Assembly: GCA_029865265.1 (NCBI GenBank)
Contig: JAOUHG010000004.1
Coordinates: 89,835 to 153,834, forward strand
Length of the DNA: 64,000 bases
Origin: Candidatus Krumholzibacteriia bacterium
GTDB lineage: Bacteria; Krumholzibacteriota; Krumholzibacteriia; WVZY01; JAKEHA01
Reading direction: 5' to 3'
Part shown: positions 41,285 through 46,983 of the stretch, piece by piece
Position numbering within the stretch: position 1 is the stretch's first letter
Layout of the letters: the number at the start of each line of letters is the position of its first letter
Translations under genes and position numbers: made by a program
The notes under the pieces: generated by a model
Database searches by the model: none
What the model saw: the letters and a program-made list of their open reading frames with translations, nothing else
What the model was told of the DNA's origin: nothing

Positions 41285-41659
41285 ATGGCTGTTGATGGAA
41301 TCGTAGTCAGCGTCACAACCGGCAGTAACGGCGCGGGCGTCTCCGTGCTCAAGGTGAGTGGCTACCTGGACACGACGACCGCGAGCGAACTCGAGACGGC
41401 GCTTTACGGCCTGCTCGATCGCGAGTCGTACCGTATCGTGGTGGACCTCTCCGGCGTCAACTACATCAGCTCCGCTGGCTGGGGCATCTTCATCGGTGAG
41501 ATCAAGCGCATCCGCAACCACGGTGGCGACCTCAAGCTGGCGGGCATGGTGGGCGACGTCCACGAGGTGTTCCAACTGCTCGAATTCCACTCCATCCTGG
41601 AGGCTTTCGGGACCACCGCCGAGGCGATTGACGCATTCAAGTCGAAGAGCGCCGGCTGA
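41285..41659 (+). CDS. STAS-domain anti-sigma-factor antagonist, paralog of previous
   Basis: ATG 41285 preceded by GGGGGA (TTG 41267 is an alternative). VLKVSGYLDTTTASELETALY...RIVVDLSGVNYISSAGWGIFIGEI...DLKLAGMVGDVHEVFQLL. Confidence 0.85.
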   Translation: MAVDGIVVSVTTGSNGAGVSVLKVSGYLDTTTASELETALYGLLDRESYRIVVDLSGVNYISSAGWGIFIGEIKRIRNHGGDLKLAGMVGDVHEVFQLLEFHSILEAFGTTAEAIDAFKSKSAG

Positions 41660-41685: not shown

Positions 41686-41723
41686 TTCGGGGCCGCGCCG
41701 ACCGCGCGGCCCCGATTTGTTTC
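41686..41723 (+). terminator. Rho-independent terminator of the STAS gene; its T-tract is the IS target site
   Basis: cggggccgcg ccgac cgcggccccg hairpin followed by atttgtttc. The same atttgtttc recurs at 42936-42944 after the IS. Confidence 0.5.
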
Positions 41724-42944
41724 GGTTGTGGCCACGAAATTGTCCCTGGCACGGGGTGTGCCTGTACCGGGACATGGGACCGGGATCGTCGGGATGGGTT
41801 CCTCCCCATTGCCCCAATCCCAACTGCACATACTTCAACACCTTGACGGATGACTGGCCCTTCAAGCGCAAGGGCTTCTACCTGCGCCAGAGGTACCCCC
41901 ACCGTATCCAGCGGTTTACATGTCTGGCCTGCAAGCGTCACTTCAGTACCCAGACCTTCTCGACCTCCTACTGGCAGAAGCGCCCCGATCTCAGCGTCCG
42001 TTGCTTCATGATGGTGGTCGGCTGCATGGGCAACCGACAGATGGCCCGCGCACTGGGTGTCAGCCACGCCAGCATCGCCCACCACGTCGCCCGCCTGGGG
42101 CGGCATTGTCTCCTGCTCCAGGCAAGCGAGCTTGCGCGGATTGAGGATCTTGACGAGATTGCGATCGACGGCTTCGAGACGTTCGAGTGGAGCCAGTACT
42201 TTCCGTTTCATCACAATGTGGCGGTGGACGTTGCCTCGGGCTACTTCCTCTGCCACATCGACAGCGTGCTGCGCCGCAAGGGGCGCATGACCGCGCACCA
42301 GCGGGCGCGCCGCGCGGCTCTCGAGGCCGAGCTGGGGCGGGCGGATCCCCGGGCAGTGGAGGCGGGCATGCGGGAGTTGCTGCAAACCCTCCTGCCCCGG
42401 GGGAAGGCGGTAACCATCCGCAGCGACGAGCATCCGGCCTATCCGCGGGCGATCGTATCCGTTGGTGGCGAGGTGACCCATCAGACCACATCCTCGAAGC
42501 AGCGGCGGGATGAGCGCAATCCATTGTTTGAGATCAACGTGCTCGACCTCTTGATCCGTCACAGCACGGCGGCGCACAAGCGGGAGACGATTGCGTGGGC
42601 GAAGCGGCGGCAGGCGTCGATCGAGAAGCTCGCGATCTTCCAGGTGTGGCGCAACTACGTGAAGCGGCGACGGGAGAAGGGGAACCGGGTGACCTCGGCG
42701 ATGCTTCTTGGGCTGGCAAGCCGGCCGTGGCGGCTTCGGGATCTGCTGAGGGAGCGGCTGTTCTTTGAGAATACGAGGCTCTCAGAACGCTGGCAACAGT
42801 ACTATCGTCGGCGTGTGGAAACCCGGGCGCTGCGGGTCAACCGGGCCCACGAACTGACCTACGCCTTCTAACGACCGCTCCGGGGCAGGATGGCGCGACT
42901 ACGCTCCGCGCAGGGACAATCTCCCGGTCACAACCATTTGTTTC
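41715..42944 (+). mobile_element. IS1/IS1595-like insertion sequence with 25-bp imperfect terminal inverted repeats and 9-bp target-site duplication (ATTTGTTTC)
   Basis: Left IR ggttgtggccacgaaattgtccctg (41724-41748). Right IR cagggacaatctcccggtcacaacc (42911-42935) is its reverse complement with about 4 mismatches. Flanking direct repeats atttgtttc at 41715-41723 and 42936-42944. Element body 1,212 bp with a single transposase ORF. Confidence 0.7.
41774..42871 (+). CDS. IS transposase (N-terminal zinc-ribbon, HTH, DDE-type catalytic domain; IS1/IS1595-like)
   Basis: CPNPNCTYFNT...RFTCLACKRHFS Cys4 ribbon. HTH MARALGVSHASIAHHV. DEIAIDGFETFEWSQYFPFHHNVAVDVASGYFLCH...RSDEHPAYPRA resembles ISXO2/IS1 InsB-type cores. 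First in-frame ATG inside the left IR boundary. Confidence 0.7.
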   Translation: MGPGSSGWVPPHCPNPNCTYFNTLTDDWPFKRKGFYLRQRYPHRIQRFTCLACKRHFSTQTFSTSYWQKRPDLSVRCFMMVVGCMGNRQMARALGVSHASIAHHVARLGRHCLLLQASELARIEDLDEIAIDGFETFEWSQYFPFHHNVAVDVASGYFLCHIDSVLRRKGRMTAHQRARRAALEAELGRADPRAVEAGMRELLQTLLPRGKAVTIRSDEHPAYPRAIVSVGGEVTHQTTSSKQRRDERNPLFEINVLDLLIRHSTAAHKRETIAWAKRRQASIEKLAIFQVWRNYVKRRREKGNRVTSAMLLGLASRPWRLRDLLRERLFFENTRLSERWQQYYRRRVETRALRVNRAHELTYAF

Positions 42945-42978
42945 GGCCCCGCCCCTTTTTAGGGCATCACCGGCAGGG

Positions 42979-45210
42979 GTGAACGTATATAGTGTCGGTA
43001 CGCGCGGACGCCGCGCCGTTCATCCTATGGTCGTCGCTTCATCCACACTGGGTCTTTCCTTTCACGCCTGGGTCGTTCCGCTGGCTGCGGTGCTGGTGGC
43101 GCTCGCCCTGTACGCGTACTGGCGCACGTCGCCTGATGTCTCCGGTCGTCCGCGTTTCGTGCTGACGGTGCTGCGCATTGCGGCGTTCCTGGTGCTCGCA
43201 CTGCTGCTCTTCGACCCCCGTTCCATCTGGCGCGGAAACCGGGTGGAGGACGCACGCGTGGTGGTGCTGGTGGATCGTTCCGCGAGCATGTCGCTACCCG
43301 CGGAAGGCTGGCAGGGGGGCGAGAGCCGGTTCGATGCGGCCCGCCGCGTGGCGGCGGGGATGTCGGACGCGGTTTCCGGCCGTGGCGCGAAGGCCGAGAC
43401 GCTCTTCTTTTCGAGCGACCTCGACGACCGTGGCGGGCAGGACGCCCGTCCGGACCGGCAGGGCACCGATATCGCCCGGGCGCTGGAGAGCGTGACGCGC
43501 CGTTTCGAGGGCGAGAACCTCGCGGCGGTGGTGGTGGTGAGCGATGGGGTGGAAACGGACGCCGCACTGGTGCGCCCGGCGCTGCCGGATGTTCCTGTAT
43601 GGACGGTGGGGGTCGGCGACACGCTGGCGGCCGCGGATGTGCGCCTGGCCGGCGTCGAGTACAGCCCGGTGGTGCGCGCACCCTCGCGTGCCACCATTCG
43701 CGCGCGCGTCGCATCCACCGGCACGACGGTGCGGCGCGTTCACCTGCAACTGAGCGAGAACGGCCGCGTGGTGTTCGAAGCGGACACGTCCCTCGCCGCG
43801 GGCCCGGCCGAGGCTGTGGTGCCGGTGGCGGTGCGGGTGACCGAGCCGGGGCGGCGTGAGTTCGTGCTGACCGTTTCGAGTGACGGCGTGGACACGGAGA
43901 AGGAAAACAACCGCCGCGATGTCGTCATCGAAGTGGAGAAGGCCAGGACGCGCGTGCTGGTGGTCGATCTTGCGCCCACCTGGGAACTGGCGTTCCTGAC
44001 CTCGCTGATCGCGCGCGATCCGGCCTACGAGTGCGAGGTGTTCGTGTCCGGCCGCTGGCCATCGACCCCGGACGGTCGCCTCAAGCGCCCCGCCGAGTTC
44101 ATGCCGGCGCTGGTGGGGGCCGACGCGGTGGTGCTCGCATCCGTCGACGAAACCTTCGTCACGCCGGCGGTGGCGGACGCGTTGCGGCGTTTCGTCACCG
44201 ACCACGGCGGCGGGCTGCTGGTGTTGCCCGGGCCGGGCTCCGCGTTCGAGAACGCCGCCGTATGGCGCGCACTGGCGGACGTGATCCCGTTGCGCGGCGA
44301 CCCGCCGTTTTCCTTCACGCTGCAGTACACGGCGGTGGGTCCCGGGGTGCGCGCGGCGGCCAGTCCCATCACCGCGCCGCTGGTGCCGCTGCTCTCGCAG
44401 ACCGACTGGCAGGAGCGCGCGCCGCTGCTGGGATTCTACGGCGGGCTGGCGCCGACGGCGGCGGGGGAGGTGCTCATCGGCGTTCGCGGCCGCGCGGTGC
44501 CGGCGCTCACCTTCGCCAACTCGGGCAAGGGCCGGGTGGCCGTCATTGCGGCGGGGCCGCTGTGGCGCTGGAAGTTCGTTGCCGAGAGCAACAGCGTCTA
44601 CGACGAACTGATGGCGCGCCTGATCGACGTGCTCACGCGCGGCGAGGAGTCGGGGCGGTTCGTGCTGGTTGCCGACAAGAACGTGTTCGAGGCGGGCGAG
44701 TCGCCGGTGCTGTACGCGGAGATCCTCAACGAGCGTCTGCAGCCGGTCACCGGCGCGCCGGTGCACGTGGAGATTGCGCGTCTCGATTCCGCGGACGTGG
44801 AGACGCCCCTTGCCCAGGCGGCCATGCGGCGCGAATCCCCCGACGCCTCGCGCATGTCCGTCACCCTGGACGCGATGCCGTCGGGGCGCTACGTGGTGCG
44901 TGGCAGCGCCGAACTCGCGGACCGCACCATCGAATCGCGGCCGCTGGAACTGCGCGTGTCGACCTCGTCGGTCGAGTTCCAGCGCACGCCGCAGGATCGC
45001 GAGGCGCTGGCGCGCATCGCCGGGCGCAGCGGGGGTGGATACGCCACGCCGGCCACGGCGCAACAGCTGGCGCCGCGCATGAACCTCGAGCCGCGCACCG
45101 TCCCCACCGTGTCCGAATCGGTGTTGCGCGCGGAGGCGCCGCTGTTCTTGATCCTGCTCGCACTGCTCTCCGCCGAATGGCTGCTGCGCAAACGCAGCGG
45201 GATGATCTAA
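42979..45210 (+). CDS. membrane protein with N-terminal TM region and VWA-like domain (BatA-like)
   Basis: Two N-terminal TM helices, then VVLVDRSASMSLP (vWA MIDAS DxSxS), ...VVVVSDGVETD. C-terminal TM anchor LFLILLALLSAEWLLRKR. Start could be ATG 43027. Confidence 0.55.
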   Translation: MNVYSVGTRGRRAVHPMVVASSTLGLSFHAWVVPLAAVLVALALYAYWRTSPDVSGRPRFVLTVLRIAAFLVLALLLFDPRSIWRGNRVEDARVVVLVDRSASMSLPAEGWQGGESRFDAARRVAAGMSDAVSGRGAKAETLFFSSDLDDRGGQDARPDRQGTDIARALESVTRRFEGENLAAVVVVSDGVETDAALVRPALPDVPVWTVGVGDTLAAADVRLAGVEYSPVVRAPSRATIRARVASTGTTVRRVHLQLSENGRVVFEADTSLAAGPAEAVVPVAVRVTEPGRREFVLTVSSDGVDTEKENNRRDVVIEVEKARTRVLVVDLAPTWELAFLTSLIARDPAYECEVFVSGRWPSTPDGRLKRPAEFMPALVGADAVVLASVDETFVTPAVADALRRFVTDHGGGLLVLPGPGSAFENAAVWRALADVIPLRGDPPFSFTLQYTAVGPGVRAAASPITAPLVPLLSQTDWQERAPLLGFYGGLAPTAAGEVLIGVRGRAVPALTFANSGKGRVAVIAAGPLWRWKFVAESNSVYDELMARLIDVLTRGEESGRFVLVADKNVFEAGESPVLYAEILNERLQPVTGAPVHVEIARLDSADVETPLAQAAMRRESPDASRMSVTLDAMPSGRYVVRGSAELADRTIESRPLELRVSTSSVEFQRTPQDREALARIAGRSGGGYATPATAQQLAPRMNLEPRTVPTVSESVLRAEAPLFLILLALLSAEWLLRKRSGMI

Positions 45211-45282
45211 CCGCCCCGGCTGTTTTACGGTTGCGCCGGGGAGCCGCGCGCGCTACACTGCCATGCGAGGTGGTGGTGTGGT

Positions 45283-46983
45283 ATGGGCGGGGTTCTTCGT
45301 TTCTTCCTCCCTTTCTTTCTTCTCTGTGCATGTTTCGGTGCCGGTCGCGCGTTCGCGCGTGTCGTCATCAACGAGGTCTATTACGATCATCCCGGCGCCG
45401 ACGCCGGCTACGAGTTTGTCGAGCTGATCGACACCGATGGCGCTGCGGCGGACATCGGCGGTCTGACGCTCGAGTTCCACAATGGAACCGGAACCGGTTG
45501 GGTGGTGTTGTGGCGCGCGGAACCCGGCGTGACGATACGTGCGGGCGAGCCGTTCCTGCTGGGTGACGCGATGGTGTCGCCTGCCCCGGACGTTCTCACC
45601 ACGTTGTCGCTGCAGAACGGACCGGATGCCCTGCGCATCGTGGACGCGAGTGGCGCGGTGCTCGACGTGGTCGGTTACGGCGGACTGGACGATGCCGCAT
45701 ACACGGAGACGCGCGGTGCCGCGGTGGTCGCGGCGGGCATGTCGATTGCGCGCGTGCCGGACGCCAACGACACGGGCGACAACGCATCCGACTTCGCGGC
45801 CGCGGCACCCAGCCCGGGCCGTTTCAACGTCCCGCGCCGCGATGTCGCACTGGCGCTCGCGCCGCCCACGCCCGCGCTGCTGGGTCGCGACGCGCCGGGC
45901 GAGGAGCGCATTGCGCTCGAGGTGGTGAACACCGGCGTGCTGGCCGTCGACGCGGGGCAGGTGCGCGTGGCCATTGCCGACTCCACGGAGGCGGGGAGTG
46001 TCGAAGCCGCCGTGGTGGTCAACGCGGCCGTCATTCCACCCGGTGGTGCGGAGCGTGTGGAGCTGCGGGTGGCGCTTTCGCTCGGGTTCCACCGGCTCGC
46101 CGCCACCGCGGGCTATCCTGCCGACGAACGCGGCTTCAATGACACCGTGGTGTTGCTGCGGCGCGTCGGGCGGGTCCCGGTTCTGGTGAGCGAGGTGTGG
46201 AGCGCGCCGGCGCCGCAGTGCCCGCAGTTCGTGGAGGTATTCAACGCCGGCGACGCGCCGGTGGACGTGGGCGGTTGGCGGTTGCGGGACATGCGCGCGC
46301 AACCGGTTCCCATTGCGGCGGACTCGCTGGTCATCGCACCGCGCGGCTTCCTCGCCGTATCCGCGAGCCCGGCGGCACTCATCGCGTGCGTCCCGCAGAC
46401 GCCGCCGGGTTCGGTGGTGGGGGTGGACGGATCGTGGCCGTCGTTCAACCGCTCGGGCAGCGGGGTTGCGGACAGCGTCGTCGTGTCCGACCGGCACGGG
46501 ATCCCGGTGGAGGCGGTCGCGTATCCGCCGCTTCCCACCGGCATCAGCGGCGTGAGCATCGAGCGCGTCGACCTCTACCCGGGCGCGCGCGCCCCGGTGT
46601 GGCGCCTCTCACCCGCCGCGCAGGGTTGCTCGCCCGGGCGTCCCAACGGCGCGTCGCTCTACGACCCGCCGGTGGAAGGCGAACTCGACGTCGAACCCAA
46701 TCCGTTCGCGCCCGCGCGCGGCGACGTGCTGCGCATCGCCGTGGCGGCCGGGGCCGGTGTGGCGCGGGTGGTGGTTTCGGTATTCGATATGACGGGGCGC
46801 CGTGTGGCCGACGTCGGCAGCGCGTTCGCGCTGCCGGCCGTGTTCCTGTGGGACGGGCGCGACCGCAGCGGACACACGGTTCGTCCCGGTCTGTACGTGG
46901 TGGCGTGCGAAGAACTCCTGGCCGACGGCACGCGGGGGACGGTGCAGAAGGTGGTGGTGGGGTGTGCGGGCGCGGCACGGTAG
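45283..46983 (+). CDS. secreted protein with two lamin-tail (LTD) domains and T9SS-CTD-like C-terminus
   Basis: Signal peptide FLPFFLLCACFGAGRAFA. INEVYYDHPGADAGYEFVELIDTDGAAADIGGLTL and VLVSEVWSAP...QFVEVFNAGDAPVDVGGWRL are LTD signatures. C-terminus DVEPNPFAPARGDVLRI...VFLWDGRDRSGHTVRPGLYVVACEE. Confidence 0.7.
   Translation: MGGVLRFFLPFFLLCACFGAGRAFARVVINEVYYDHPGADAGYEFVELIDTDGAAADIGGLTLEFHNGTGTGWVVLWRAEPGVTIRAGEPFLLGDAMVSPAPDVLTTLSLQNGPDALRIVDASGAVLDVVGYGGLDDAAYTETRGAAVVAAGMSIARVPDANDTGDNASDFAAAAPSPGRFNVPRRDVALALAPPTPALLGRDAPGEERIALEVVNTGVLAVDAGQVRVAIADSTEAGSVEAAVVVNAAVIPPGGAERVELRVALSLGFHRLAATAGYPADERGFNDTVVLLRRVGRVPVLVSEVWSAPAPQCPQFVEVFNAGDAPVDVGGWRLRDMRAQPVPIAADSLVIAPRGFLAVSASPAALIACVPQTPPGSVVGVDGSWPSFNRSGSGVADSVVVSDRHGIPVEAVAYPPLPTGISGVSIERVDLYPGARAPVWRLSPAAQGCSPGRPNGASLYDPPVEGELDVEPNPFAPARGDVLRIAVAAGAGVARVVVSVFDMTGRRVADVGSAFALPAVFLWDGRDRSGHTVRPGLYVVACEELLADGTRGTVQKVVVGCAGAAR

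Follow-up and report, generated by a model that had tools for sequence, protein, structure and literature searches.

A distant relative of IS1 in the terminator of a STAS-STAS operon of a Candidatus Krumholzibacteriia bacterium, and the transposon family to which it belongs

In a stretch of 64,000 nt from a Candidatus Krumholzibacteriia bacterium (contig JAOUHG010000004.1, positions 89,835 to 153,834; 64 kb in all, called here the window), a STAS-STAS operon with its intrinsic terminator is followed by an insertion sequence (IS) and then by the gene of a membrane protein with a VWA domain (Table 1). We are confident that this 1,212-bp element is a putatively autonomous IS belonging to an unnamed clade distantly related to IS1. 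The initial annotation had described an intact IS inside the T-tract of the terminator, with a 9-bp target-site duplication (TSD) around 25-bp imperfect inverted repeats (IRs) and an uninterrupted transposase open reading frame (ORF). This description holds in each of its parts: the duplication, the IRs and the open 365-codon frame are all present where they had been placed, and relatives with an empty site are known.

Table 1. Features of the element and of its surroundings in the window
Feature	Coordinates	Strand	Evidence
STAS-domain gene (STAS2), last of the terminated operon	41285..41659	+	domain and homologue search
Hairpin of the intrinsic terminator behind the STAS-STAS operon; stem of 12 bp, loop of 5 nt	41687..41715	+	terminator scan, RNA fold
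Left TSD copy ATTTGTTTC, the terminator T-tract	41715..41723	+	repeat comparison; single copy in L178
Complete insertion sequence, 1,212 bp	41724..42935	+	IRs, TSD, relatives of the same length and ends at 91 sites
Left inverted repeat GGTTGTGGCCACGAAATTGTCCCTG	41724..41748	+	IR alignment; family-invariant positions intact
Sigma-54-like -24/-12 element: CTGGCACG (41746-41753), N5, TGC (41759-41761)	41746..41761	+	left-end alignment motif
Transposase gene, 365 aa, uninterrupted	41774..42871	+	ORF translation
Right inverted repeat (reverse complement GGTTGTGACCGGGAGATTGTCCCTG)	42911..42935	-	IR alignment and pattern search
Right TSD copy ATTTGTTTC	42936..42944	+	repeat comparison
Conserved block 5' of the VWA gene (TTTTTAGGGCATC ... 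GTATATAGTG)	42956..42994	+	conserved across lineages
VWA-domain membrane protein gene, 727 aa from the ATG of its homologues	43027..45210	+	domain and homologue search

The TSD is a perfect match at the two ends of the element. The direct identity of the flanks is really 11 nt long (ATTTGTTTCGG) because GG opens both the element and the right flank. The IRs are complementary at 21/25 positions (84%), and both keep every position that is invariant in the family (G2, T3, T4, T6, G7, C9, A14, A16, T18, G19 and T20). A degenerate IR pattern found just the two ends of the element in the window and gave no match in 100 shuffles. The site before insertion is seen in a metagenome contig, L178, whose VWA protein is 88% identical to that of the window. 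It reads ...CGGGGCCGCGCCTCTCGCGCGGCCCCG ATTTGTTTC TGGGG...TTTTTAGGGCATC, where the 9-mer stands once and the element is absent, and therefore both the insertion and the duplication are proven. Two more relatives, L176 and L177 (VWA 84% identical), are also empty. These alleles were reached through homologues of the VWA protein; GGCCCCGATTTGTTTCGGCCCCG itself had no exact match among metagenome contigs.

The element belongs to a large family. More than 2,000 homologues of the transposase were scored, and a full HMMER scan gave 1,952 cluster representatives (50% identity) at E ≤ 1e-3. Where hosts are named, they are Candidatus Krumholzibacteriia, Latescibacteria/Latescibacterota, Gemmatimonas and metagenome-assembled genomes (MAGs) labelled Fibrobacteraceae; the nearest named homologues of both the transposase and the VWA protein of the window are from Krumholzibacteriia. 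We anchored the end motifs in 171 loci and could delimit the element in 112 of them, which gave 91 unique sites with usable flanks and element lengths of 1,198-1,236 bp. Relatives are abundant, with 3-5 or more copies at unrelated loci in several MAGs; the exact element was found at this one locus alone in the window and the metagenome contigs. A tblastn search of a plasmid collection with the transposase gave no match. TSD identity over the 91 sites is bimodal (at least 8/9 in 31, below 7/9 in 55), and perfect TSDs occur at 20 different sites. Among the named members, the source names are "hypothetical protein" (NCBI) and "transposase-like protein" (JGI). With about 2,000 cluster representatives, the family is nevertheless invisible to standard annotation, and naming it would help the annotation of mobile elements in little-known phyla of the Fibrobacteres-Chlorobi-Bacteroidetes (FCB) group.

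The transposase had been described from the sequence as a protein with a zinc ribbon, a helix-turn-helix (HTH) and an Asp-Asp-Glu (DDE) catalytic domain. The ribbon (four cysteines, C13, C18, C50 and C53) and the HTH (about residues 85-107) are both there and are followed by an RNase H-like core, whereas the label DDE fits only loosely, as N255 lies opposite the glutamate of IS1. Invariant in the family alignment are the four cysteines, D132, D218, R262, R270 and T272. Pfam gave weak HTH matches alone on the transposase. Of 48 diverse members, some matched the models IS1_IS1595_Zn (11/48), ISL3 (29/48, weakly) and HTH_Tnp_IS1 (2/48). When a profile of the 48 members was compared by hhalign with the InsAB' protein of E. 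coli, rebuilt from IS1A, the two aligned over 187 columns with a probability of 94% and an E value of 1.3e-7. It starts at the second CxxC, passes through the HTH and reaches into the catalytic core; it includes the second aspartate and the region past the third catalytic residue and pairs TDGWPLY with SDEHPAY and RKSLSFSK with RETIAFSK. The AlphaFold model (pLDDT, the predicted local distance difference test, 91; pTM, the predicted template modelling score, 0.91) has a core of beta1-3/alpha/beta4/alpha/beta5/alpha, which is the RNase H-like order, and its best structural matches in the PDB are retroviral integrases, the ISCth4 transposase and Mos1. A sequence search of the PDB with the family profile returned zinc-finger and HTH noise and nothing else.

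Opposite the IS1 glutamate, the 48 members have N (38), D (9) or T (1). Because N255 faces that glutamate and the invariant R262 follows seven residues on, the sequences make a DD(N/D) triad with a basic residue at +7, like that of IS1595, more likely than a plain DDE triad. E271, the alternative third residue, is present in 44/48 members. All 20 close and all 48 diverse members have a single uninterrupted ORF and no insA/insB frameshift. Residues of about 172-212 (IS positions 601-800) are hypervariable, with 59-77% nucleotide identity even among close elements; this segment lies between beta3 and beta4 of the core and is mostly without an InsB counterpart in the hhalign alignment.

IS1595 is a sister of IS1; it has DDNK/DDEK/DDHK motifs, typically 8-bp TSDs and other ends. 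ISfinder lists single-ORF and ISMhu11-type subgroups within the IS1 family. We place the element of the window in the IS1 superfamily, as a distant member with a single ORF and not as a canonical IS1, because its ends follow the GGnnnTG pattern of IS1 (GGTTGTG at both ends here, GGTGATG in IS1A) and its TSD is also as in IS1. IS1 makes TSDs of 8 or 9 bp (PMC12428005), and the 9 bp seen here fall within this range. The two also share the layout of an N-terminal zinc finger and HTH before an RNase H-like catalytic domain. The element here is larger than IS1 (1,212 vs 768 bp), its protein is larger by about 130 residues through a beta3-beta4 insertion and a C-terminal extension, N or D takes the place of the IS1 glutamate, and the left end carries a motif resembling a sigma-54 promoter, described below, that marks a further difference. 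The likeness to IS1595, which was compared by description, lies in the N-terminal zinc domain and in N255...R262, which resembles DDNK; no IS1595 transposase model matched the family.

The family also has a clear target preference. In the 31 clean TSDs, A/T accounts for 74-97% at positions 0-2 and 6-8, the centre is mixed, the bases just outside the TSD are only 16-45% A/T, and the flanks have 66% GC, so that the consensus target is WWW-NNN-WWW with S on either side. IS1 likewise prefers AT-rich targets. Terminator-like hairpins are associated with the sites to a degree that exceeds AT-richness, and this association is real. Perfect stems of at least 6 bp lie 3-13 nt off the element boundary in 26 cases vs about 6 expected from the background farther out. 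In register, such a stem is found at 25/91 of all sites vs 5.5% of all flank 9-mers and about 3% of matched controls, and at 9/36 TSD-bearing sites vs 2.6-3.0% of GC-matched 9-mers (p about 3e-7). Folded hairpins of -15 kcal/mol or lower that end within 4 nt of the 9-mer were counted in the same way: they occur at 28.6% of sites vs 3.2% of motif-matched 9-mers, at 41.5% of sites within 60 nt of a gene 3' end vs 3.0% of controls, and on 40% of sides with a 10/12-GC flank vs 5.6% of controls. Among 54 classifiable intergenic sites, convergent spacers are enriched (28/54 vs 15% of controls) and divergent spacers depleted (4/54 vs 36%), with the control genes called by a crude ORF filter based on GC content at third codon positions and the matching imperfect. 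A bias of the hairpins to one end of the element was considered and rejected, the counts (17 vs 9 for perfect stems, 20 vs 18 for folded hairpins) being not significant. In limited searches of the open-access literature, no paper on the targeting of terminators by a DDE-type IS was found.

The initial annotation had suggested that the insertion may be recent, and this is not supported. The exact element is present at the same locus in at least four metagenome contigs from different samples. The site is occupied, with an identical TSD, in a sister strain too (L175, a 795-kb contig; element at L175:2198-3409), whose neighbouring genes differ from those of the window by a synonymous divergence (dS) of 0.05-0.08. 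More distant relatives are marked at the same spacer: a lone right-end remnant, GGGACAATCTCCCGGCCACAACC, lies at about 2206-2245 of L183 (VWA 82% identical), right after the STAS2 stop codon, and the Krumholzibacteriia MAG L184 (VWA 76%) has a family element at 1-500, with its right end at TTTTCATTT, a short way upstream of the conserved block 5' of the VWA gene. The insertion is thus not demonstrably recent, and use or re-use of the terminator extends over several lineages, either by repeated insertion or by inheritance followed by overwriting through recombination with other copies.

Several observations weigh against the reading of the element as an autonomous, IS1-related IS. No Pfam catalytic (DDE) domain, DDE_Tnp_IS1 included, matched the protein or its diverse relatives even at E ≤ 10, and the NCBIfam IS1 model NF033558 covers residues 43-128 only, with 41.6 bits against a cut-off of 100 (E 1.3e-10); a similarly weak match recurs in 46/48 diverse members. 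The single 365-aa ORF contrasts with the insA/insB genes of canonical IS1, which are joined by a -1 frameshift. A recognisable 9-bp TSD is missing at 55/91 sites despite intact IRs (e.g., L023, L107, L121, L148 and L172), and a search for reciprocal flank pairs between copies that would account for these sites gave low-complexity T-tract matches alone. A shift of the boundary by up to 3 nt recovered one of them. The TSD-less sites often have a hairpin and T-tract on one side and the stop codon of a convergent gene on the other, where TA and the G of the element make TAG. IS1 is known for causing adjacent deletions, and by analogy such deletions are a possible cause of the missing TSDs; the remnant in L183 is a scar of this kind. 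The share of sites with a strong hairpin alongside is only about one quarter to one third, which means that a hairpin is not a requirement. The degenerate IR pattern showed no second copy of the element in the window. Finally, the window and L175 elements share 87.7% identity against about 98% in their flanks, which means that a single shared ancestral insertion is not the sole reading of this site.

An alternative is domestication or inactivation: the element would then be a relic, a single-copy gene that the host keeps for another function. The exact protein is present at this locus alone, there is no further copy within the window, a relative (P0013) occurs at one locus in 10 samples, and the ORF is under purifying selection (a ratio of nonsynonymous to synonymous divergence, dN/dS, of 0.25 between the window and L175). 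We consider a relic very improbable: both IRs retain every family-invariant position, the perfect TSDs are spread over 20 sites, many MAGs have three to five or more copies with neighbour genes that vary by site, and contigs frequently break at the element. How the terminator association of this mobile family arose is less clear-cut, since it may reflect targeting or the survival of harmless insertions. It is close to an even bet that survivorship alone is responsible, with a transposase that likes AT-rich 9-mers and with only harmless T-tract or 3' intergenic insertions persisting in tightly packed genomes of 66% GC. The TSDs have about 29% GC within their GC-rich flanks, promoter-side spacers are the depleted class and convergent ones the enriched class, several sites touch a stop codon so that the terminal G of the element finishes TAG, and the majority of sites have no hairpin, all of which fits survivorship. 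The excess of hairpins nevertheless persists against controls matched for motif, intergenic location, proximity to a gene 3' end and GC-rich flanks. For the site in the window, it is quite possible, if somewhat short of even, that the elements of the window and L175 are independent insertions of different variants into the same 9-bp target in the same orientation, which would make the terminator a true hot spot. The transposase genes of the two differ by a dS of 0.35, against 0.05-0.08 for the neighbouring genes, and their noncoding ends differ at 9/114 positions vs 3/200 in the flanks (Fisher p = 0.01). The window and L175 elements are also roughly equidistant (85-88%) from each other and from those of L005 and L096, which lie at unrelated loci. 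The differences start inside the IRs (IS positions 15 and 17; position 8 from the right end) and the 50 nt next to the element are identical on each side, while the spacer holds an element in L184 and a scar in L183 but neither in the intermediate L178 and L176. On the other hand, the last 200 nt are closer between the window and L175 (93%) than between the window and other elements (84-86%), which fits shared ancestry with internal gene conversion from other copies; the profile of divergence along the element parallels the family-wide profile of conservation; and the p value, coming from few sites, is modest. Faster evolution of the IS as the source of the divergence is argued against by the dS of 0.35 vs about 0.06 in the flanks. 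A pair of strains with 98% identical flanks and 88% identical elements at one site bears on assembly and on strain analysis.

In its association with terminators, the family is like group IIC introns, whose insertion sites lie right after the hairpins of intrinsic terminators. The two share the position directly 3' of a GC-rich terminator stem-loop, where an insertion does little harm. The introns, however, are retroelements whose ribonucleoprotein recognizes the DNA stem-loop and which make no TSD, whereas here we have a DNA transposon that carries IRs and makes a 9-bp TSD, in a family with a hairpin at only about 30% of its sites. Group II introns, class IIC among them, are the subject of PMC7923331 and PMC8643678. 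A looser likeness can be drawn to ISs that use extragenic palindromes as safe sites, namely those of the IS110/IS1111 group at repetitive extragenic palindromic (REP) or attC sites (e.g., ISPpu9 and ISPpu10) and IS1397 in bacterial interspersed mosaic elements (BIMEs) (PMC12288879; bioRxiv 10.64898/2026.03.19.712850). Their chemistry is different as well, with DEDD transposases guided by a bridge RNA or enzymes of the IS3 type, the IS110 group being without a typical TSD, and they insert within a specific repeat, while the family described here lies beside palindromes that are unrelated in sequence. If landing at terminator hairpins is a property of the transposase, it would be new for a DDE-type element and would offer a simple and tractable natural case of safe-harbour insertion.

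The second feature of note is the left end. Over 91 elements, its consensus is Y-T/C-G-G-C-(A/C)-C-G, N5, T-G-C, and GG (IS 25-26) and GC (IS 37-38) stand in exact register in 89/91 left ends and in 0/91 right ends. A sigma-54 promoter has the geometry GG-N10-GC at -24/-12. Compared with YTGGCACG-N4-TTGCW, the window reads CTGGCACG-GGGT-GTGCC; T36 and C27 are each present in 82/91 elements. The ATG is at IS position 51 in 70, 50 in 13 and 52 in 4 of the 91 elements. In the window it follows the motif by 12 nt, and in 87/91 elements it lies 12-13 nt past the GC. With the GG-N10-GC spacing, the predicted transcription start therefore coincides with the A of the ATG or lies beside it, and the mRNA would be leaderless. 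The chances that the left end is an RpoN-dependent promoter with a near-leaderless transposase mRNA appear roughly balanced, judged by the motif. Homologues of NtrC-type AAA+ activators are present in three host loci (L063, L058 and L062); none lies in the window, and no rpoN turned up in the sequences examined. A family-wide hairpin at the left end that would hide the start codon was tried as an alternative and rejected: RNAalifold gave 0 pairs, and a 12-pair helix was 51% paired vs 49% in shuffles. The palindromes of the left end are subfamily-specific ones only. Limited open-access literature searches found no paper on a transposase promoter driven by sigma-54. If the promoter is genuine, such an invariant motif suggests that transposition is gated by an enhancer-binding protein, i.e., by a specific signal.

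In the mechanism that we propose for this element, for which we infer the IR-binding domain, the catalytic triad and the sigma-54-type promoter of the left end, the zinc ribbon and HTH would bind the terminal IRs of about 23 bp (GGTTGTG...GAnAnTGT), by analogy with IS1, and cleavage of the ends and their transfer to a target cut with a 9-bp stagger would fall to the RNase H-like domain; repair of the stagger would then yield the duplication of ATTTGTTTC. The family prefers AT-rich WWW-NNN-WWW 9-mers within GC-rich DNA and is found disproportionately in the T-tracts that follow GC-rich terminator hairpins. At this locus the element entered the terminator of the STAS-STAS operon, on this reading long enough ago to be shared with the sister strain L175, and the VWA gene retains its own conserved upstream block. 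A bolder version, which we regard as unlikely, is that of an undescribed IS1-superfamily clade, widespread in Krumholzibacteriota, Latescibacterota, Gemmatimonadota and related MAGs, that actively homes to terminators, places its 9-bp stagger in the T-tract behind the hairpin, hits the same terminator again in different lineages and keeps its transposase silent behind a sigma-54-type promoter with a leaderless mRNA; if true, it would unite structure-guided targeting of safe sites, like that of group IIC introns, with activator-gated expression in one DDE-type transposon. The single insertion is ordinary, and a lone IS behind a terminator is routine annotation; the family, an IS1-related clade with two features of note in its terminator association and its left-end motif, may matter more.

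The terminator itself begins 27 nt past the STAS2 stop codon. Its hairpin reads cggggccgcgccgaccgcgcggccccg, has 11 GC pairs in the 12-bp stem and is followed by TTTGTTTC. The initial annotation had stated that removal of the element restores a hairpin and T-tract terminator, which is borne out by the RNA fold and by L178, although the hairpin string quoted there was short by two bases. The hairpin folds both with and without the element, and its stem is kept in the empty-site relatives L176 and L178 with a variable loop. The duplication copies the T-tract, and therefore the predicted terminator stays whole after the insertion: the hairpin and the left TSD copy, then GGTTGT, still stand upstream of the element. 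With a complete terminator directly upstream, the transposase gene is predicted to be shielded from transcription of the operon. On the other side, the terminator scan predicted no terminator within 42872-43026, and for this reason read-through from the element into the VWA gene is possible. The block upstream of the VWA gene is intact 3' of the element and is found in the window, L175, L176, L178, L183 and L184, whether the site is occupied or not; it is conserved down to lineages with 76% VWA protein identity and is probably the promoter or leader of the VWA gene. No Rfam family reached its gathering score in the window.

The gene order around the element is conserved in L001, L175 and L176 (39367-45210 in the window), with a ParA/MinD-like ATPase, a 90-aa protein, a TPR protein, two STAS proteins, the VWA protein and an LTD-domain protein. 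In the window, the segment at 45227-46126, which overlaps the LTD-domain gene (45283-46983), is only 80-88% identical to L175 in surroundings that are 97-99% identical, and the LTD gene has a dS of 0.29; from the sequence comparison, this segment of a probable surface protein looks mosaic or recombined.

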